A stretch of 64,000 nt of DNA from Escherichia coli (GCF_036507355.1 NZ_AP027877.1), one strand, 5' to 3'. Shown: positions 31,328 through 44,923, counted from the first letter of the stretch. Numbers and translations are program-made. Notes: generated by a model not told the origin, from the letters alone.

Positions 31328-31715
31328 AACTACTTTTCACCTTTTTTGTGCGTCAAATCGTCGACGCGACGTGAACACGCGAAACTCACCTGCATAATGA
31401 TGAGCAATTTCAGCGGTTTTTAACAGGCCGATTCTGCCCTTAATTCTGATGGGCGTGTTAGAAAAAAATGTGGTACAACAACTCAGGCAACACGCAAACG
31501 ATTTACTCGTCGTATTTCAAGTTGCATATGCTGCGGCTACGTTCGTTCACCCCAGTTACTTACTGTTGTAAGCTCCTGGAGTTCACTCGCTTGCCGCCTT
31601 CCTGCAACTCGAAATCCATAGAGTAAATAAACATCACCTTTCTGTGCGCTATTGCAGCCGCCTGAAAGAACAGTGTATCGACCTACATCACAGACCGCAG
31701 GAAAGGGTCAATATA

Positions 31716-34700
31716 ATGATTCCACAGATTTCCCAGGCACCCGGCGTCGTTCAACTGGTGCTTAATTTTTTGCAAGAGCTGGAGCAACAAGGTTTTACCG
31801 GCGATACGGCGACAAGTTATGCCGATCGTCTGACAATGTCGACCGACAACAGTATTTACCAACTTCTCCCCGATGCGGTGGTATTTCCGCGTTCAACCGC
31901 AGATGTGGCGCTGATCGCCCGTCTTGCCGCGCAGGAACGCTATTCATCGCTGATCTTTACCCCCCGCGGCGGCGGCACCGGCACTAACGGTCAGGCGCTC
32001 AACCAGGGGATTATTGTTGATATGTCCCGCCATATGAACCGCATCATCGAAATTAACCCTGAAGAGGGCTGGGTGCGCGTTGAGGCCGGGGTGATAAAAG
32101 ACCAACTCAATCAGTACCTGAAACCGTTCGGCTACTTTTTTGCGCCGGAACTTTCGACCAGCAACCGGGCAACGCTCGGTGGGATGATCAATACCGATGC
32201 ATCCGGTCAGGGATCGCTGGTCTATGGCAAAACGTCAGATCACGTACTTGGCGTACGCGCGGTATTGTTGGGGGGCGATATTCTCGATACGCAACCTTTA
32301 CCCGTCGAGCTGGCGGAAACGCTGGGTAAATCCAATACCACAATCGGGCGAATTTATAACACGGTTTATCAACGTTGCCGTCAGCAACGCCAGTTAATCA
32401 TCGACAACTTCCCCAAACTTAACCGCTTTCTTACCGGTTACGATCTGCGTCATGTCTTTAACGATGAGATGACCGAGTTCGATCTGACGCGCATTCTGAC
32501 GGGTTCAGAAGGGACGCTGGCCTTTATTACCGAAGCGCGGCTGGATATTACGCGCTTGCCTAAAGTGCGCCGTCTGGTGAACGTCAAATATGACTCTTTT
32601 GACTCTGCGCTGCGTAACGCGCCGTTTATGGTTGAGGCGCGGGCGCTTTCGGTAGAGACGGTGGACTCAAAAGTGCTGAATCTGGCGCGGGAAGATATTG
32701 TCTGGCATTCCGTCAGCGAGTTGATTACCGATGTGCCTGACAAAGAGATGCTCGGGCTGAACATTGTGGAATTTGCTGGTGATGATGAGGCGCTGATTGA
32801 TGAGCGGGTAAATGCACTCTGTGCGCGGTTGGATGAGCTGATCGCCAGTCATCAAGCAGGTGTCATCGGCTGGCAGGTGTGCCGTGAGCTGGCGGGGGTT
32901 GAACGTATCTATGCAATGCGCAAAAAAGCCGTTGGTCTGCTTGGCAATGCCAAAGGTGCCGCTAAGCCAATTCCGTTTGCTGAGGATACCTGCGTACCGC
33001 CGGAACATCTGGCCGATTATATTGCTGAATTTCGCGCGCTGCTCGACAGCCACGGCTTAAGTTATGGCATGTTTGGTCATGTCGATGCTGGGGTGTTGCA
33101 CGTCCGTCCGGCGCTGGATATGTGCGATCCACAACAAGAGATTTTGATGAAGCAAATCTCTGATGACGTGGTTGCGCTGACTGCGAAATACGGTGGTTTG
33201 TTGTGGGGCGAACACGGAAAAGGTTTTCGTGCCGAATACAGCCCGGCGTTTTTTGGGGAGGAACTTTTTGCAGAACTGCGCAAAGTGAAAGCGGCATTTG
33301 ACCCGCATAACCGACTCAACCCAGGGAAGATTTGCCCGCCAGAAGGTCTCGATGCGCCGATGATGAAAGTGGACGCGGTGAAGCGCGGTACATTCGATCG
33401 GCAGATCCCCATTGCGGTACGCCAGCAGTGGCGCGGTGCGATGGAGTGTAACGGCAACGGTTTATGCTTCAACTTTGATGCCCGTAGTCCGATGTGTCCG
33501 TCGATGAAGATCACCCAGAACCGGATTCATTCACCGAAAGGGCGCGCAACGCTGGTGCGTGAATGGCTGCGTTTGTTGGCGGATCGCGGCGTTGACCCAC
33601 TCAAACTGGAACAAGAACTGCCTGAATCCGGCGTCAGTTTGCGGACGTTAATTGCCCGCACGCGCAATAGCTGGCATGCGAATAAAGGCGAATATGACTT
33701 CTCACACGAAGTCAAAGAGGCGATGTCGGGCTGTCTGGCCTGTAAAGCGTGTTCGACCCAGTGCCCCATCAAAATTGATGTGCCGGAGTTTCGCTCTCGT
33801 TTTCTGCAGCTCTATCACACCCGTTATTTACGCCCGCTGCGCGACCACCTCGTCGCTACGGTCGAGAGCTACGCGCCGCTGATGGCACGCGCGCCGAAAA
33901 CCTTTAACTTCTTCATTAACCAGCCGCTGATGCGCAAACTCTCGGAAAAACATATCGGCATGGTTGATTTGCCGCTGCTGTCGGTCCCCTCGCTACAACA
34001 ACAAATGGTGGGGCATCGCTCGGCAAACATGACGCTGGAACAGCTTGAAGCTCTCAATGCAGAGCAGAAAGCGCGCACGGTGTTGGTGGTGCAGGACCCC
34101 TTTACCAGCTATTACGATGCGCAAGTGGTGGCGGATTTTGTCCGTCTGGTCGAAAAATTAGGTTTCCAGCCTGTGTTACTGCCATTTTCGCCAAATGGCA
34201 AAGCCCAGCATATTAAAGGTTTTCTTAATCGTTTTGCGAAGACGGCGAAAAAGACGGCGGATTTCCTCAACCGTATGGCGAAGCTGGGTATGCCAATGGT
34301 AGGCGTCGATCCGGCGCTGGTACTTTGTTATCGCGATGAATATAAACTGGCACTGGGCGAGGAACGTGGCGAGTTTAACGTCTTACTGGCGAATGAATGG
34401 CTGGCAAGCGCACTTGAGTCACAGCCAGTGGCTACAGTCAGCGGTGAATCATGGTATTTCTTTGGTCACTGTACCGAAGTTACCGCCTTGCCGGGTGCGC
34501 CAGCACAATGGGCCGCGATATTTGCCCGTTTTGGCGCGAAACTGGAAAATGTCAGCGTGGGTTGCTGCGGCATGGCAGGGACTTACGGACATGAAGCGAA
34601 AAACCATAAAAATTCGCTCGGGATCTATGAGTTATCCTGGCATCAGGCTATGCAGCGACTGCCGCGTAACCGCTGTCTGGCGACCGGATATTCCTGCCGT

Positions 34701-34772
34701 AGTCAGGTCAAACGGGTTGAAGGCACGGGGGTACGCCATCCTGTGCAGGCTTTACTGGAGATTATTAAATGA
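31716..34772 (+). CDS. ydiJ: FAD-linked oxidoreductase with Fe-S domain (D-2-hydroxyglutarate dehydrogenase-like)
   Basis: 1018 aa from MIPQISQAPGVVQLV...; track ORF extends 24 codons upstream. Confidence 0.85.
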   Translation: MIPQISQAPGVVQLVLNFLQELEQQGFTGDTATSYADRLTMSTDNSIYQLLPDAVVFPRSTADVALIARLAAQERYSSLIFTPRGGGTGTNGQALNQGIIVDMSRHMNRIIEINPEEGWVRVEAGVIKDQLNQYLKPFGYFFAPELSTSNRATLGGMINTDASGQGSLVYGKTSDHVLGVRAVLLGGDILDTQPLPVELAETLGKSNTTIGRIYNTVYQRCRQQRQLIIDNFPKLNRFLTGYDLRHVFNDEMTEFDLTRILTGSEGTLAFITEARLDITRLPKVRRLVNVKYDSFDSALRNAPFMVEARALSVETVDSKVLNLAREDIVWHSVSELITDVPDKEMLGLNIVEFAGDDEALIDERVNALCARLDELIASHQAGVIGWQVCRELAGVERIYAMRKKAVGLLGNAKGAAKPIPFAEDTCVPPEHLADYIAEFRALLDSHGLSYGMFGHVDAGVLHVRPALDMCDPQQEILMKQISDDVVALTAKYGGLLWGEHGKGFRAEYSPAFFGEELFAELRKVKAAFDPHNRLNPGKICPPEGLDAPMMKVDAVKRGTFDRQIPIAVRQQWRGAMECNGNGLCFNFDARSPMCPSMKITQNRIHSPKGRATLVREWLRLLADRGVDPLKLEQELPESGVSLRTLIARTRNSWHANKGEYDFSHEVKEAMSGCLACKACSTQCPIKIDVPEFRSRFLQLYHTRYLRPLRDHLVATVESYAPLMARAPKTFNFFINQPLMRKLSEKHIGMVDLPLLSVPSLQQQMVGHRSANMTLEQLEALNAEQKARTVLVVQDPFTSYYDAQVVADFVRLVEKLGFQPVLLPFSPNGKAQHIKGFLNRFAKTAKKTADFLNRMAKLGMPMVGVDPALVLCYRDEYKLALGEERGEFNVLLANEWLASALESQPVATVSGESWYFFGHCTEVTALPGAPAQWAAIFARFGAKLENVSVGCCGMAGTYGHEAKNHKNSLGIYELSWHQAMQRLPRNRCLATGYSCRSQVKRVEGTGVRHPVQALLEIIK

Positions 34773-35179: not shown

Positions 35180-35278
35180 CGTTGTCACCAGAAAAGTGTG
35201 ACGCATATTGCTTTTGGTCATTATCTGCACAGTAAACGGTGGTATACTGTGCAGGTCTTGTCTAAAAGCGAGGATGCT

Positions 35279-35467
35279 ATGTCTACTCAACTTGATCCCA
35301 CCCAGCTGGCCATTGAATTTTTACGCCGTGACCAGAGCAATCTTTCACCTGCCCAATATCTCAAACGTCTGAAACAACTAGAACTTGAATTTGCTGACCT
35401 GCTTACTCTCTCTTCTGCTGAATTAAAAGAAGAAATCTACTTTGCCTGGCGTCTGGGTGTGCATTGA
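35279..35467 (+). CDS. ydiH: Small protein of unknown function
   Basis: 62-aa MSTQLDPTQLAIEFLRRDQSNLSPAQYLKRLKQLELEF...; track ORF extends 27 codons upstream. Confidence 0.7.
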   Translation: MSTQLDPTQLAIEFLRRDQSNLSPAQYLKRLKQLELEFADLLTLSSAELKEEIYFAWRLGVH

Positions 35468-35692
35468 TCCTGACTTAATGCCGCAAGTTCGCCAAATCGA
35501 CCTGGATTAACCTCCGTCCAGGTTCGATGACCTTCTTAATACTGCTTATCTACCCGCCTGATATTGTTCAAAAATAATACTAATCGCAGTTTGTGTTAAA
35601 ACGGCGGCTTAGCTTTATGAGATTATTCTTATCGCCCCTTCAAGAGCTAAGCCACTGAGAGTGCCGGAGATAAGCGCCGGATGGGGTAGAAA

Positions 35693-35737
35693 CCCTTAAG
35701 CCTGTGTCGCACAGACTTAAGGGTTTTCTTATTTCTG
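35693..35737 (+). terminator. Intrinsic terminator about 230 bp downstream of ydiH; possible 3' end of a small RNA (RydB locus?)
   Basis: cccttaagcctgtg-tcg-cacagacttaaggg followed by ttttcttatttctg; too far from ydiH to be its own terminator. Confidence 0.35.
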
Positions 35738-35820
35738 AACGCTGCACTTTTTTACCTATCTCTTAAATAGTCAGTTTCAATACAACTTTTTCTTTTTCAT
35801 CACAGCCTTAATTCTCCTTA

Positions 35821-35839
35821 GATAATAACCATTATCTAA
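35821..35839 (+). promoter_or_regulatory. Fur box in the suf operon promoter region
   Basis: GATAATAACCATTATCTAA matches the GATAATGATAATCATTATC-type Fur consensus, about 180 bp upstream of sufA. Confidence 0.65.
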
Positions 35840-36015
35840 CAATGAGATACCTAATTCTTAGCGTGCCTGTTAACCCACACATCAGGGTCTATGCTTATTA
35901 AAAGCAGGCAAAAAGCATGTTTTACGGTAAAGCCCCTGCGTTTGCTGGGTTGAACTGATAATCATTATCACTAACATGCTGTTATACGCTGAAAGCGATG
36001 AAGTGAGGTAAATCG

Positions 36016-36384
36016 ATGGACATGCATTCAGGAACCTTTAATCCACAGGATTTCGTCTGGCAGGGCTTAACGCTGACACCCGCAGCGGCGATACACATCC
36101 GCGAGCTGGTGGCAAAACAGCCAGGTATGGTCGGCGTGCGCTTAGGTGTGAAGCAAACGGGCTGCGCGGGCTTTGGCTATGTGCTCGACAGTGTTAGCGA
36201 GCCGGACAAAGACGATCTGCTGTTTGAACACGACGGCGCGAAGCTGTTTGTCCCGCTGCAAGCGATGCCGTTTATTGATGGCACGGAAGTCGATTTCGTT
36301 CGTGAAGGACTTAATCAGATATTCAAATTTCACAACCCTAAAGCCCAGAATGAATGTGGCTGTGGCGAAAGCTTTGGGGTATAG
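36016..36384 (+). CDS. sufA: Fe-S cluster A-type carrier
   Basis: 122 aa with C-terminal CGCGESF motif. Confidence 0.93.
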
Positions 36385-36392
36385 GCGGTACT

Positions 36393-37880
36393 ATGTCTCG
36401 TAATATTGAAGCAACTGACGATGTCAAAACCTGGACCGGCGGCCCGCTGAATTATAAAGAAGGATTCTTCACCCAGTTAGCCACCGATGAGCTGGCAAAG
36501 GGGATAAACGAAGAGGTGGTGCGCGCAATTTCGGCGAAGCGTAATGAGCCGGAGTGGATGCTGGAGTTTCGTCTAAACGCCTATCGCGCATGGCTGGAGA
36601 TGGAAGAACCGCACTGGTTGAAAGCGCACTACGACAAGCTGAATTATCAGGATTACAGCTACTACTCGGCACCATCGTGCGGTAATTGTGACGACACTTG
36701 CGCGTCTGAACCCGGCGCGGTGCAGCAAACTGGCGCGAACGCCTTTTTAAGTAAAGAGGTGGAGGCGGCGTTTGAGCAGCTAGGCGTTCCCGTGCGGGAA
36801 GGCAAAGAGGTGGCGGTGGATGCCATTTTCGACTCTGTTTCGGTTGCCACCACTTATCGCGAAAAACTGGCGGAGCAGGGAATTATCTTTTGCTCCTTTG
36901 GTGAGGCGATCCACGATCACCCGGAGCTGGTGCGTAAATATCTCGGCACCGTGGTGCCGGGGAATGACAACTTCTTTGCCGCGCTTAATGCGGCGGTGGC
37001 CTCTGACGGTACGTTTATTTATGTGCCTAAAGGCGTGCGCTGCCCGATGGAACTTTCCACCTATTTTCGCATTAACGCGGAAAAAACCGGGCAGTTTGAG
37101 CGCACCATTCTGGTGGCCGACGAAGACAGCTACGTCAGCTACATTGAAGGCTGTTCCGCTCCGGTGCGTGACAGCTATCAGTTACACGCGGCGGTGGTGG
37201 AAGTCATCATCCATAAAAACGCCGAGGTGAAATATTCCACGGTACAAAACTGGTTCCCTGGTGATAACAACACCGGCGGTATTCTCAACTTCGTCACCAA
37301 GCGTGCTTTGTGCGAAGGCGAAAATAGCAAAATGTCATGGACGCAATCAGAAACCGGATCCGCGATTACGTGGAAATATCCCAGCTGCATTCTGCGCGGC
37401 GATAACTCCATTGGTGAGTTTTACTCAGTGGCGTTGACCAGCGGTCATCAGCAAGCGGATACCGGCACCAAGATGATCCACATCGGTAAAAACACCAAAT
37501 CGACCATTATCTCGAAAGGGATCTCTGCCGGACATAGTCAGAACAGTTATCGCGGCTTAGTGAAAATCATGCCGACGGCAACCAATGCGCGCAATTTCAC
37601 TCAGTGCGACTCAATGCTGATTGGCGCTAATTGTGGGGCGCATACCTTCCCGTATGTCGAATGTCGCAATAACAGCGCACAACTGGAGCACGAGGCAACG
37701 ACATCACGTATTGGTGAAGATCAACTGTTTTACTGCCTGCAACGCGGGATCAGCGAAGAAGACGCCATCTCGATGATTGTTAACGGTTTCTGCAAAGACG
37801 TGTTCTCAGAACTGCCGCTGGAATTTGCCGTTGAAGCACAAAAACTCCTCGCCATCAGTCTTGAACACAGCGTCGGATAA
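36393..37880 (+). CDS. sufB: Fe-S cluster assembly scaffold SufB
   Basis: 495 aa from [26 protein letters not shown]...; track ORF extends 13 codons upstream. Confidence 0.93.
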
Positions 37881-37889
37881 GGAATAAAC

Positions 37890-38636
37890 ATGTTAAGTAT
37901 TAAAGATTTACACGTCAGCGTGGAAGATAAAGCTATTCTGCGCGGATTAAGCCTCGACGTTCGTCCCGGCGAAGTTCACGCCATTATGGGGCCAAACGGT
38001 TCGGGCAAAAGTACCTTATCGGCAACGCTTGCCGGGCGAGAAGATTATGAAGTGACGGGCGGCACGGTTGAGTTCAAAGGCAAAAATTTGCTTGCACTGT
38101 CGCCGGAAGATCGTGCAGGCGAAGGCATCTTTATGGCCTTCCAGTATCCGGTGGAGATTCCAGGTGTCAGTAACCAGTTTTTCCTGCAAACGGCACTTAA
38201 TGCGGTGCGCAGCTATCGCGGCCAGGAAACGCTCGACCGCTTTGATTTTCAGGATTTGATGGAAGAGAAAATCGCTCTCCTGAAGATGCCGGAAGATTTA
38301 TTAACCCGTTCGGTAAACGTTGGCTTTTCCGGCGGCGAGAAAAAGCGCAACGATATTCTGCAAATGGCGGTGCTGGAACCGGACTTATGCATTCTTGATG
38401 AGTCGGACTCCGGGCTGGATATTGACGCATTAAAAGTGGTCGCCGATGGCGTGAACTCGCTGCGTGATGGCAAGCGCTCATTCATCATTGTTACGCACTA
38501 CCAACGCATTCTCGACTACATCAAGCCTGATTACGTTCATGTGCTATATCAGGGACGAATTGTGAAATCCGGCGATTTCACGTTGGTCAAACAACTGGAG
38601 GAGCAGGGTTATGGCTGGCTTACCGAACAGCAGTAA
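37890..38636 (+). CDS. sufC: Fe-S cluster assembly ATPase SufC
   Basis: 248 aa with Walker A GPNGSGKST. Confidence 0.95.
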   Translation: MLSIKDLHVSVEDKAILRGLSLDVRPGEVHAIMGPNGSGKSTLSATLAGREDYEVTGGTVEFKGKNLLALSPEDRAGEGIFMAFQYPVEIPGVSNQFFLQTALNAVRSYRGQETLDRFDFQDLMEEKIALLKMPEDLLTRSVNVGFSGGEKKRNDILQMAVLEPDLCILDESDSGLDIDALKVVADGVNSLRDGKRSFIIVTHYQRILDYIKPDYVHVLYQGRIVKSGDFTLVKQLEEQGYGWLTEQQ

Positions 38637-39882
38637 CGCACTGCAACAGTGGCATCATTTGTTTGAAGCTGAAGGGGTGAAACGTTCCCCGCAAGCACAA
38701 CAGCATTTACAACAATTGCTGCGTACCGGACTGCCGACACGTAAACATGAAAACTGGAAATATACGCCGCTGGAAGGGCTGACCAATAGTCAGTTTGTCA
38801 GCATTGCGGGAGATATATCCCCACAGCAGCGTGATGCCTTAGCGTTAACGTTAGACGCCGTGCGGCTGGTGTTTGTCGATGGACGTTACGTGCCCGCGCT
38901 GAGCGATGCAACTGAAGGCAGCGGATATGAAGTGAGCATTAACGACGACCGTCAGGGGTTACCCGACGCTATTCAGGCGGAAGTGTTTCTGCATTTGACG
39001 GAAAGCCTGGCGCATAGCGTGACGCATATCGCCGTGAAGCGCGGTCAACGGCCGGCAAAGCCATTGCTGTTAATGCATATCACCCAGGGCGTGGCAGGTG
39101 AAGAGGTGAACACTGCCCATTACCGACATCATCTGGATCTGGCGGAAGGTGCCGAAGCAACGGTGATCGAACATTTTGTCAGCCTTAATGATGCTCGTCA
39201 TTTTACCGGGGCACGGTTCACTATCAACGTCGCAGCGAATGCCCACTTGCAGCATATCAAGCTGGCGTTTGAAAACCCGCTCAGTCACCACTTTGCTCAT
39301 AACGATTTGTTGCTGGCTGACGATGCCACCGCATTTAGCCACAGTTTCCTGCTGGGTGGCGCAGTGTTACGACACAACACCAGTACGCAACTCAATGGCG
39401 AAAACAGCATGTTGCGGATCAATAGCCTGGCGATGCCGGTGAAAAACGAGGTGTGTGATACCCGTACCTGGCTGGAACACAATAAAGGTTTTTGTAACAG
39501 CCGACAGTTGCACAAAACTATCGTCAGCGACAAAGGCCGCGCGGTATTTAACGGTTTGATCAACGTCGCGCAGCACGCCATCAAAACGGATGGTCAGATG
39601 ACCAACAATAATCTGCTGATGGGCAAACTGGCGGAAGTGGATACGAAACCGCAGCTGGAAATCTATGCAGATGATGTGAAATGCAGCCACGGCGCGACGG
39701 TGGGGCGTATTGATGATGAACAGATGTTCTATCTGCGCTCGCGCGGGATCAATCAGCAGGATGCCCAGCAGATGATCATTTACGCCTTTGCTGCCGAACT
39801 GACGGAAGCACTGCGTGATGAGGGGCTTAAACAGCAGGTGCTGGCCCGAATCGGTCAACGGCTGCCAGGAGGTGCAAGATGA
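38611..39882 (+). CDS. sufD: Fe-S cluster assembly protein SufD
   Basis: 423 aa; overlaps the sufC 3' end by 26 bp. Confidence 0.92.
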
Positions 39883-41099
39883 CTTTTTCCGTCGACAAAG
39901 TGCGGGCCGACTTTCCGGTGCTTTCGCGTGAGGTAAACGGTTTGCCGCTGGCTTATCTCGACAGCGCCGCCAGTGCGCAGAAACCGAGCCAGGTGATTGA
40001 CGCCGAGGCCGAGTTTTATCGTCATGGCTACGCGGCGGTGCATCGCGGTATTCATACCTTAAGCGCCCAGGCGACCGAGAAAATGGAGAACGTGCGCAAG
40101 CGGGCATCGCTGTTTATTAATGCCCGTTCGGCGGAAGAGCTGGTGTTCGTCCGCGGCACGACGGAAGGGATCAATCTGGTCGCCAATAGCTGGGGCAACA
40201 GCAACGTGCGGGCGGGCGATAACATCATCATAAGTCAGATGGAGCACCACGCTAACATTGTTCCATGGCAGATGCTTTGCGCACGCGTTGGCGCAGAGCT
40301 GCGTGTGATCCCGCTCAATCCCGACGGTACGTTGCAACTGGAGATGCTACCTAATCTGTTCGATGAGAAAACTCGCCTGCTGGCAATTACTCATGTCTCC
40401 AACGTGCTTGGCACAGAAAATCCACTGGCGGAAATGATCACGCTTGCGCACCAGCATGGCGCAAAAGTGCTGGTGGATGGCGCTCAGGCGGTGATGCATC
40501 ATCCGGTGGATGTTCAGGCGCTGGATTGCGACTTTTACGTGTTCTCCGGGCATAAACTGTATGGCCCCACCGGAATTGGCATTCTTTATGTGAAAGAAGC
40601 CTTGTTGCAGGAGATGCCGCCGTGGGAAGGGGGCGGTTCTATGATCGCCACCGTCAGCCTGAGTGAAGGCACTACCTGGACCAAAGCACCATGGCGGTTT
40701 GAAGCCGGTACACCCAATACCGGGGGCATCATTGGTCTTGGCGCGGCGCTGGAGTATGTTTCGGCGCTGGGGCTTAATAACATAGCCGAGTATGAACAGA
40801 ATCTGATGCATTACGCGCTATCACAGCTGGAATCTGTACCGGATCTCACTCTCTATGGTCCGCAGAACAGGCTTGGCGTTATTGCTTTTAATCTCGGTAA
40901 ACACCACGCCTATGATGTTGGCAGTTTTCTCGATAATTACGGCATTGCTGTGCGTACCGGACATCACTGCGCTATGCCATTAATGGCCTATTACAACGTC
41001 CCTGCGATGTGTCGGGCGTCGCTGGCCATGTATAACACCCATGAAGAAGTGGATCGTCTGGTGACCGGATTGCAACGTATTCACCGTCTGCTGGGATAA
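39879..41099 (+). CDS. sufS: Cysteine desulfurase SufS (PLP-dependent)
   Basis: 406-aa [36 protein letters not shown]...; 4-bp overlap with sufD. Confidence 0.95.
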
Positions 41100-41111
41100 C
41101 AGGGAGGCACT

Positions 41112-41528
41112 ATGGCTGTATTGCCGGATAAAGAAAAATTGCTGCGTAATTTTTTACGCTGCGCCAACTGGGAAGAGAAATATCTCTACATTATTGAGCT
41201 GGGCCAGCGTCTGCCAGAATTACGCGACGAAGACAGAAGCCCACAAAATAGCATTCAGGGCTGCCAGAGTCAGGTGTGGATTGTCATGCGCCAGAATGCG
41301 CAGGGAATTATTGAATTGCAGGGCGACAGCGATGCGGCGATTGTGAAAGGGCTTATTGCGGTCGTCTTTATTCTCTACGATCAGATGACGCCGCAGGATA
41401 TTGTCAATTTCGATGTGCGTCCGTGGTTTGAAAAAATGGCGCTCACCCAACATCTCACCCCATCTCGTTCACAAGGTCTGGAAGCGATGATTCGCGCAAT
41501 TCGCGCCAAAGCCGCTGCACTTAGCTAA
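41112..41528 (+). CDS. sufE: Sulfur acceptor SufE
   Basis: 138 aa. Confidence 0.93.
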
Positions 41529-41676
41529 ACTAAAGGGACAGCTTTCATCCGGTTGGCTCACATTGCCGGATGGTCAATGTTTACACTGACCTGCACAGGA
41601 GTGTTTCGGTTTCAGGTGAACATAAGCGCCATCCGACGTTTCAGCGTGAGTCTCCGGCAAATACAGGAGGTTTACA

Positions 41677-42681
41677 ATGAAACGCGCGTCTTTGCTTACA
41701 CTCACGCTTATCGGCGCTTTTAGCGCCATCCAGGCTGCCTGGGCGGTTGATTATCCGCTACCACCAACCGGAAGCCGACTGGTTGGGCAAAATCAAACGT
41801 ATACGGTGCAGGAAGGGGATAAAAACCTTCAGGCCATCGCCCGACGTTTTGATACTGCGGCAATGTTGATCCTTGAAGCCAATAACACTATCGCCCCGGT
41901 GCCAAAACCCGGTACGACGATAACTATTCCTTCGCAACTGTTATTACCTGATGCGCCGCGTCAGGGGATTATCGTTAACCTTGCAGAGCTGCGCCTTTAT
42001 TATTATCCGCCGGGAGAAAATATCGTGCAGGTTTATCCGATAGGTATTGGCTTGCAGGGGCTGGAAACGCCAGTGATGGAAACGCGTGTGGGGCAGAAAA
42101 TCCCTAACCCAACCTGGACGCCTACGGCAGGCATTCGTCAACGTTCGCTGGAGCGTGGCATTAAATTACCGCCAGTCGTTCCTGCCGGACCAAATAACCC
42201 GCTAGGACGTTACGCACTGCGCCTCGCGCATGGTAATGGCGAATACCTCATTCATGGCACCAGTGCGCCGGACAGCGTCGGTTTGCGCGTCAGTTCAGGG
42301 TGTATTCGCATGAATGCACCGGATATTAAAGCCTTGTTCTCCAGCGTGCGGACGGGAATGCCGGTGAAAGTGATCAACGAACCGGTGAAATATTCCGTGG
42401 AGCCTAACGGGATGCGTTATGTTGAAGTACATCGACCACTATCGGCAGAAGAACAGCAGAACGTTCAGACAATGCCATACATACTGCCAGCAGGCTTTAC
42501 GCAATTTAAAGACAATAAGGCTGTAGATCAGAAGTTAGTCGATAAAGCGTTGTATCGTCGGGCAGGGTATCCGGTTGCGGTGAGCAGTGGAGCAACTCCC
42601 ACAGCCAGCAATGCGCCTTCAGTAGAGTCAGCGCAGAATGGTGAACCAGAGCAAGGGAATATGTTACGCGCGACGCAGTAA
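41677..42681 (+). CDS. ldtE: L,D-transpeptidase with LysM domain (YnhG)
   Basis: 334 aa with signal peptide and the YkuD catalytic motif [20 protein letters not shown]. Confidence 0.9.
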
Positions 42682-43291: not shown

Positions 43292-44704
43292 TTACAGGAC
43301 GTGAACAGATGCGGTGTTAGTAGTGCCGCTCGGTACCAGTGCACCAGAAACCATAACTACAACGTCACCTTTGTGTGCCAGACCGCTCTGCAGAGCCAGT
43401 TCTTTACCCAGACGGTAGAAATCATCAGTAGAAGTGATCTCTTTAACCAGCTGCGGCACAACGCCTTTGCTCAGTACCAACTGATGAGCCGTTTTTTCGT
43501 TGGTGGTCAGTGCCAGGATGGTGGCATCCGGGAAGTATTTACGTACTGCGCGAGCAGATTTACCGCCCTGGGTAGCAACCACGATCAGCGGAGCATCCAG
43601 TTTTTCAGCAGTTTCAACGGCACCACGGCATACCGCTTCGGTAATGCGCAGTTTACGGTTGTCATTGTTGAACTCGAGACGGCTGTTCATCACGCGGTCG
43701 GTACGTTCGCAGATGGTCGCCATGATAGAAACCGCTTCCAGCGGGTATTTACCTTTTGCGGATTCACCAGACAGCATCACTGCGTCAGTACCGTCGAGGA
43801 TGGCGTTTGCAACGTCACCGGCTTCTGCGCGAGTCGGGCGTGGGTTTTTGATCATGGAATCCAGCATCTGGGTCGCAGTGATAACGACTTTACGTGCACG
43901 GATACATTTTTCGATCATCATCTTCTGGGCGAAGATAACTTCTTCTACCGGGATTTCTACACCCAGGTCGCCACGCGCAACCATGATGCCGTCAGAGGCT
44001 TCGAGGATTTCGTCGAAGTTGTTGAGGCCTTCCTGGTTTTCGATTTTGGAGATGATGTGGATGTTTTCGCCGCCGTGCGCTTTCAGGTGCTCACGGATTT
44101 CGATAACGTCAGAACGCTTACGAATAAAGGAAGCAGCAACAAAGTCTACGCCTTGTTCGCAACCAAAGATCAGGTCCTGTTTGTCTTTTTCAGCCAGTGC
44201 TGGCAGAGCAATGGAAACGCCAGGCAGGTTCACACCTTTGTTTTCGCCCAGGTCGCCGTTGTTCAGTACTTTACAGATAACTTTGTTACCTTCAATGGCG
44301 GTAACTTCCATACCGATCAGACCATCGTCAACCAGTACGGTGTTGCCAACAGACAGGTCAGTAGTGAAACCTTCATACGTTACCGCAACCATTTCGCTGT
44401 TGCCGATAACAGATTTATCAGTGGTGAAAGTAAAGGTCTGACCAGCTTTCAGAGAAACGTCGTTACCGCCTTCCAGTTTCATGGTGCGGATTTCCGGACC
44501 TTTGGTATCAAGCAGGATAGCGGCGGTTTTACCAGTTTTGCTCATCACGTTGCGCAGATTCTGAATGCGCTGACCGTGTTCTGCATAGTCACCATGAGAG
44601 AAGTTCAGACGCATAACGTTCATGCCAGCGTCCAGCATTTTAGCTAACATCTCTTCAGATTCGGTTTTCGGTCCGATGGTGCAAACAATTTTGGTCTTTT
44701 TCAT
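43292..44704 (-). CDS. pykF: Pyruvate kinase I
   Basis: 470 aa from [38 protein letters not shown]...; track ORF extends 72 codons upstream. Confidence 0.95.
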
Positions 44705-44909
44705 GACAGTCTTAGTCTTTAAGTTGAGAAGGATGGGAGAAACTTGCTTTCTGGGCGCACTGCCGGAAAGCGAATCCGGTATTACGAAAGTGGTGGTGCC
44801 TCGCTCTAAGGATAGGTGACATCGAAAAAGCGTGCAGAGGAATGTGTGCTTGTGTCTCAGCCCAACGTGAGTGCCTGTTTTTGAGTCGTTGAGTTCTACA
44901 GTCCAAAGT

Positions 44910-44923
44910 GCTGAAACCATTCA
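44910..44923. promoter_or_regulatory. Cra (FruR)-like box upstream of pykF
   Basis: GCTGAAACCATTCA against consensus GCTGAAACGTTTCA. Confidence 0.4.

Follow-up and report, generated by a model that had tools for sequence, protein, structure and literature searches.

The 64,000 nt of DNA analysed here (the window) come from Escherichia coli (GCF_036507355.1, NZ_AP027877.1). Positions 36016-41528 hold six co-oriented genes encoding, in order, an A-type carrier, SufB, the SufC ATPase, SufD, the SufS desulfurase and SufE. This is the canonical E. coli sufABCDSE Fe-S cluster assembly operon, of the Proteobacteria type. The genes are tightly packed, and we consider what this means for their translation. 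As a whole the locus is best explained as an ordinary suf operon in which each gene has its own Shine-Dalgarno (SD) sequence, the mode of initiation differs from junction to junction, and a longer form of sufB is an over-called reading frame; we hold this explanation with good confidence. The genes are as follows.

36016..36384, plus strand: sufA, 122 aa, A-type Fe-S carrier; equivalog NF007050, residues 1-122 against 122 profile positions.
36393..37880, plus strand: sufB, 495 aa, scaffold subunit, after an 8-nt spacer; equivalog NF008773.
37890..38636, plus strand: sufC, 248 aa, ABC-type ATPase, after a 9-nt spacer; NF007134, residues 1-248 against 248 profile positions.
38611..39882, plus strand: sufD, 423 aa, scaffold subunit; NF008194, 1-422 of 423; residues 1-423 of PDB 2ZU0/5AWF.
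39879..41099, plus strand: sufS, 406 aa, pyridoxal phosphate (PLP)-dependent cysteine desulfurase; NF006791, residues 1-406 against 406 profile positions.
41112..41528, plus strand: sufE, 138 aa, sulfur acceptor, after a 12-nt spacer; NF006792, residues 1-138 against 138 profile positions.

All six proteins give end-to-end matches to NCBIfam equivalogs, each above the curated cut-off. Of 5426 complete E. coli genomes, 5424 match the region 35500-42000, the best (H1) at 99.2% identity, and just 15 of the 5424 reach at least 99% identity over this 6.5-kb query, which points to a somewhat divergent Escherichia or Shigella lineage as the source. The RefSeq/PGAP annotation used for comparison is that of E. 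coli EC1515 (hit H2, 99.1% over the query), its coordinates shifted by +33999. The gene order there is ydiJ, menI, ydiH, sufA, sufB, sufC, sufD, sufS, sufE, ldtE, lpp, pykF, and after the shift the boundaries of the six suf coding sequences coincide exactly with those in the window. The two operons differ at 53 nucleotides, giving nine amino-acid changes (e.g. SufB T5I and SufC D66N), and none of the differences falls in a junction. The E. coli K-12 operon (b1684-b1679) shares the gene order, the equivalog-level proteins, the intergenic distances, the Fur box and an upstream rydB gene with that of the window, and the differences are allelic only.

The five junctions are these.

sufA/sufB: spacer of 8 nt (+8); the sufB ATG at 36393 is 9 nt past 36384, where the sufA stop codon ends.
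sufB/sufC: spacer of 9 nt (+9), read from the sequence.
sufC/sufD: overlap of 26 nt (-26) at 38611..38636, plus strand, with sufD in the +1 frame relative to sufC.
sufD/sufS: overlap of 4 nt (-4), an ATGA start/stop overlap at 39879..39882, plus strand.
sufS/sufE: spacer of 12 nt (+12), carrying the SD GGGAGG.

The same distances (8, 9, -26, -4 and 12, with 547 nt upstream and 148 nt downstream) were tabulated for K-12 by Huber et al. 2023 (supplement, PMC10666635). A preliminary description of the locus had given the sufC/sufD overlap as 26 bp, on which the sequence, RefSeq and the K-12 table (PMC10666635) agree, and the sufD/sufS overlap as 4 bp, which is the ATGA at 39879-39882 and is likewise found in RefSeq and PMC10666635. 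It had also placed the start of sufB 9 bp after sufA, and this is correct when counted from the end of the stop codon to the ATG, with 8 nt between them. RefSeq and published tables already document the operon together with its gene boundaries, regulators and exact intergenic distances.

Each internal gene has an SD of its own. The calculated SD duplex energies of all the real starts lie between -6.2 and -11.6 kcal/mol, where the median for all ATG triplets in the window is -2.9 kcal/mol, and the SDs of the downstream suf starts rank at about the 5th percentile of those triplets or beyond. Individual values are -9.2 for sufA, -7.0 for sufB, -9.3 for sufD and -11.6 kcal/mol for sufS. The packing is so tight that, of the five internal ribosome-binding sites, three extend into the preceding coding sequence or lie entirely within it. 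The SD of sufC (AAGGA) overlaps the sufB stop codon (TAAGGA), and that of sufS (AGGAGGT, 39868-39874) precedes the ATGA overlap.

The junctions were compared between species using a single DNA-pattern scan for the SufC motif VTHYQRILDYIKPD, which gave 120 loci from distinct species, mostly Enterobacterales and Vibrionaceae with a few outgroups. Upstream stop codons, and starts aligned to the E. coli N-termini, were placed by tblastn. The sufC/sufD overlap measures 26 nt (-26) in 91 of 96 species, which belong to the Enterobacterales, the Vibrionaceae and a few other groups, and the Salmonella loci L062 and L086 are among those that have it. At sufD/sufS, about 65 of 91 species have -4 and about 16 have -1. 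The spacers drift, ranging over 1-52 nt for sufA/sufB, 2-120 nt for sufB/sufC and 1-104 nt for sufS/sufE. Conservation thus holds for the two overlapping junctions but does not extend to the three with spacers, and the arrangement is more than chance. Strong SDs for sufD and sufS are present in 96-100% of cases across the species. We note that two Vibrio loci (L028 and L052) and locus L088 have a second ATG just past the sufC stop codon (TAGAGATGTGG...) besides the conserved ATG at -26.

The start of sufD is embedded in the end of sufC.

38596..38613, plus strand: sufD ribosome-binding site inside sufC, with SD GGAGGAG (encoding SufC Leu-Glu-Glu), a 7-nt spacer measured from AGGAG, and the ATG formed from TAT-GGC (Tyr-Gly of GYGW).

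The synonymous codons of SufC that create this site are strikingly uniform. The embedded tyrosine codon is TAT in 100 of 100 species, compared with 48% TAT at the other 628 sufC tyrosine codons, and at the two embedded glutamate positions GAG is used by 100 of 100 and 92 of 95 species, compared with 37% GAG at the other glutamate codons of sufC. The sufD SD has a uniform energy of -9.3 kcal/mol across species, and is at or below -6 kcal/mol in 100% of 89 species. SufD in the crystallographic entries PDB 2ZU0 and 5AWF begins MAGLPNSS. The embedded site is under purifying selection at synonymous sites, and this is a modest new element of the analysis. In the outgroups L020, L053, L092 and L095 the residues L-E-x-x-G-Y-[DE]-W are kept with TAC or GAA codons, and the next gene follows the sufC stop codon. 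The conserved SufC tail (L-E-E-x-G-Y-G-W) probably pre-existed and would have supplied an SD and an ATG at ideal spacing. The sufD start may then have been captured there in the gammaproteobacterial lineage and frozen by double coding, with selection on both frames. Programmed frameshifting to give a SufC-SufD fusion was also considered. By inspection, the overlap ATGGCTGGCTTACCGAACAGCAGTAA contains no slippery heptamer and the SD is too distant from any candidate site to stimulate a +1 shift, and this was rejected.

Folding of 120 nt at each junction gave structures no more stable than those of shuffled controls (z from -1.07 to +1.49). One local element was found.

38608..38637, plus strand: local RNA hairpin in which the sufD AUG pairs with the sufC UAA; -11.9 kcal/mol, z = -2.0.

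The hairpin is seen in the E. coli-like lineage with the tail ...CAGCAGTAAC. A conserved structure at this junction was rejected, since the outer pairs of the hairpin can form in 63-96 of 110 species with zero compensatory changes and alifold does not predict it. The hairpin is lineage-specific, and its significance is uncertain. Neither the junction folds nor the comparison of 110 species revealed a stable, conserved structure occluding a ribosome-binding site, of the kind on which coupling by RNA unfolding would depend.

Published work gives a measure of which distances permit a terminating ribosome to reinitiate on the next gene. Termination-reinitiation is efficient at about -4 to +3 nt and predicted for -8 to +10 nt; it falls steeply with distance, more so for longer overlaps than for longer spacers. 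In the synthetic operons of Tian and Salis there was no coupling at -25 nt. Junctions of the class from +9 to +12, which includes sufB/sufC and sufS/sufE, most likely undergo independent initiation on a polycistronic mRNA (Huber et al., PMC10666635). Within the interval -8 to +10 lie sufD/sufS (-4), sufA/sufB (+8) and sufB/sufC (+9); sufC/sufD (-26) and sufS/sufE (+12) lie outside it. On this basis sufD/sufS appears a good candidate for coupling, sufA/sufB and sufB/sufC would be borderline, and sufC/sufD seems poorly suited to a simple hand-over. Literature searches for translational coupling in suf found no direct experiment.

The sufD/sufS junction resembles the ATGA/TGATG termination-reinitiation pairs trpE-trpD, hyfH-hyfI and menD-menH in its -4 ATGA with the SD within the upstream gene, and in being kept as -4 or -1 in relatives. 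It differs in that SufD and SufS do not belong to a single stable complex, and the likeness is one of sequence geometry. With the coat/lysis pairs of phages fr and MS2 (-38 and -50) sufC/sufD shares a start well upstream of the preceding stop codon. At -26 the sufD start is so far upstream that hand-over would require backward movement of the ribosome or unfolding of the RNA. Unlike those pairs, sufD has a strong, conserved SD and lacks a conserved occluding structure, so that its translation does not need coupling. The synthetic -25 operons of Tian and Salis, with an overlap of similar length, showed none.

We therefore favour a junction-specific mechanism. Each cistron has an SD and an ATG of its own. 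Initiation on sufB (+8) and sufC (+9) is probably mainly de novo, with partial reinitiation at most, and that on sufD (-26) is probably de novo for the most part, from the strong SD and AUG embedded in sufC. By contrast sufS, with its ATGA, its -4 overlap and its strong SD, probably receives some of its ribosomes from termination on sufD. Termination on sufC and initiation on sufD would exclude each other in time where the ribosome footprints overlap, so the overlap would link the rates of the two genes, but not as a simple 1:1 hand-over.

Several points weigh against this junction-specific reading. The phage fr coat/lysis pair couples by scanning at -38 nt, and scanning backwards over 23 nt to the SD-flanked sufD AUG would be possible. 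In the predicted fold of E. coli and its closest relatives the start codon of sufD can pair with the stop region of sufC, which would make coupling through RNA unfolding more likely. The species sampled are not phylogenetically independent, and were selected by a SufC motif 35 residues from the C-terminus, giving a sample biased towards lineages with conserved SufC tails. Finally, we infer how far each junction relies on de novo initiation or on reinitiation.

The leading alternative is that sufB, sufC and sufD (and sufS) are coupled by hand-over of ribosomes at every junction, fixing the ratio of the SufBCD proteins. This is close to the preliminary description, in which the arrangement was taken to imply translational coupling for stoichiometric SufBCD production. 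All the junctions are short (-26 to +12) and the overlapping ones are conserved, and overlapping or near-abutting pairs of E. coli genes are 4.5-fold enriched for subunits of heteromeric complexes. A ribosome-profiling preprint on Salmonella reports that proportional synthesis of SufBCD is set mainly by differing translation efficiencies, i.e. at the translational level. However, the scaffold is SufB1C2D1, not 1:1:1; equimolar coupling is therefore not what is needed, and hand-over yields 1:1 at most. The -26 overlap is outside the range for reinitiation, at a distance where coupling in synthetic operons vanishes. The +8 and +9 junctions have their own SDs, and there is no occluding RNA structure at the junctions that would tie downstream initiation to upstream translation. 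The sole junction of ideal geometry (-4) does suit reinitiation, and to this extent the earlier proposal is partly supported, but it joins SufD to SufS, which is not a subunit of SufBCD; the pair is marked 'CMPLX not' (PMC10666635). Coupling for SufBCD stoichiometry was thus overstated, and we regard hand-over at every junction as unlikely.

A second alternative also gives the sufC/sufD overlap a role in setting the ratio, in this case by steric means. Ribosomes finishing sufC would gate initiation on sufD across the Enterobacterales and Vibrionaceae, with one initiation for roughly every two passages along sufC, possibly aided by the AUG/UAA hairpin, giving SufC:SufD of 2:1. When a ribosome terminates on sufC the sufD AUG is 20 nt upstream of the P-site codon, so that the two footprints would overlap; both the 26-nt overlap and the SD and AUG within it are strictly conserved; the hairpin is present in the E. 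coli lineage; and translation efficiency in Salmonella is reported to track the 1:2:1 stoichiometry. Yet the argument is purely inferential, and the hairpin is not conserved. Double coding constraint after capture of the start explains the conservation of the overlap equally well. Moreover, in other lineages the median spacing of SufC-to-SufB/D pairs is +2.6 nt, and the same complex is built (PMC10666635). We consider such a ratio-setter improbable, more so than general hand-over, and that alternation between sufC termination and sufD initiation contributes to SufD being made less often than SufC is speculation. If it were true, 2:1 synthesis of SufC and SufD for the SufBC2D scaffold would be hard-wired by the 26-nt overlap, which would not be a passive by-product.

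The remaining question concerns the start of sufB. A mechanical list of open reading frames (ORFs) contains a 508-aa sufB ORF that begins at an ATG at 36354 and overlaps sufA by 31 nt.

36354..36392, plus strand: spurious 13-codon 5′ extension of the sufB ORF, its ATG created where GAA-TGT in sufA encodes Glu-Cys of the cluster-binding ECGCG tail.

The predicted SD pairing is -0.1 kcal/mol at 36354 and -7.0 kcal/mol at 36393. The ATG aligned with that of E. coli (MSRN...) was found in 70 species, with sufA/sufB spacers of 1-52 nt. Of these, 30 have no upstream in-frame start, and 40 have an ATG, GTG or TTG, which is ATG in 28. Whether this codon is ATG or GTG tracks solely the choice of glutamate codon in SufA, and in several species the frame of the extension is closed by a TGA arising from GGT-GAA codons. 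RefSeq, PDB 5AWF and the equivalog hidden Markov model (HMM) all use the 495-aa form beginning MSRN. The longer ORF is an over-call, as the preliminary description had recognized, and an artefact of picking the first ATG after a stop codon. That it is a real second isoform, as the in-frame ATG and open frame in E. coli and the upstream starts in 40 of 70 relatives might suggest, is very improbable, given the absence of an SD, an ATG accounted for by the conserved Glu-Cys codons of SufA, its replacement by GTG or closure of the frame by TGA in many species, and the start of the HMM and the solved structures at MSRN. The ORF list is over-extended in the same way, relative to RefSeq, for ydiJ (31644-34772; 1042 aa compared with about 1018 aa), ydiH (35198-35467; 89 and 62 aa) and pykF (43292-44920; 542 and about 470 aa).

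Upstream of sufA there is a match to the Fur consensus.

35957..35975, minus strand: Fur-box-like 19-mer GTTAGTGATAATGATTATC, matching the Fur consensus at 16 of 19 positions; 41 nt upstream of sufA.

It differs from the consensus GATAATGATAATCATTATC by three mismatches and was the single match in the 64-kb window, with 0.02 expected by chance. The assignment as a Fur box is by match to the consensus; Fur repression of suf is established in the literature (PMC12533949; PMC8593673). The Fur-box-bearing promoter of the preliminary description is thereby borne out. Inspection by eye places the promoter hexamers at 35950-35955 (TTGAAC) and 35972-35977 (TAACAT) with a 16-nt spacer and an 8/12 match, so that the predicted Fur box covers the spacer and the likely -10 element. 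A generic scan for sigma-70 promoters and terminators gave no significant excess of sites, and the sufA promoter (8/12) fell below its cut-off and was hence missed.

Northern blots detect a transcript spanning the whole of sufABCDSE, and in a fur mutant its repression is relieved (PMC12533949). Apo-IscR activates suf via a type 2 site in the -35 region, and sites far upstream for OxyR and IHF also activate it (PMC8593673). A degenerate motif for IscR type 2 sites gave 14 matches against 9.25 expected, none of them in the core promoter, but a motif this loose is uninformative. The whole operon is carried on one mRNA, from a sufA promoter controlled by Fur, IscR and OxyR/IHF. RyhB pairs with +51 to +74, inside the coding sequence of sufB, and reduces expression of a SufAB-LacZ fusion by about 30% (PMC12533949), so the sufA/sufB region is a known regulatory point independent of coupling.

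Some features of the surroundings may be recorded. The small RNA gene rydB lies at 35634-35694 on the plus strand (Rfam RF00118, 81.6 bits, full length), in the 548 nt between ydiH and sufA and on the suf strand, and is followed at about 35696-35735 by a hairpin and T-run, CTTAAGCCTGTGTCGCACAGACTTAAGGGTTTTCTTATTT. Downstream, no site resembling an intrinsic terminator was found on the plus strand in the 148 nt between sufE and ldtE (41529-41676), and transcriptional read-through from suf into ldtE is possible. The latter gene has its own strong SD, ACAGGAGG. On the minus strand a 246-aa ORF at 39367-40107, opposite the sufD/sufS junction, has no NCBIfam match and is presumably a chance ORF. 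In the species sample, the suf operon of locus L035 (NZ_JAATUR010000015.1, labelled Escherichia coli SCPM-O-B-8794) is 93.0% identical to that of the window; the corresponding values are 92.6% for E. albertii (L004) and 95-99% for complete E. coli genomes. This record may be from another Escherichia species.

As an ordinary operon, annotated and tabulated before, the locus is of small value as a discovery. For the quality control of annotation it shows why a first-ATG rule over-calls sufB, and why an ATG within a gene is the true start of sufD. The literature on translational coupling gives conflicting answers on long overlaps, and sufC/sufD is a clean natural case for the effect of overlaps of about -25 nt on the relative synthesis of subunits.

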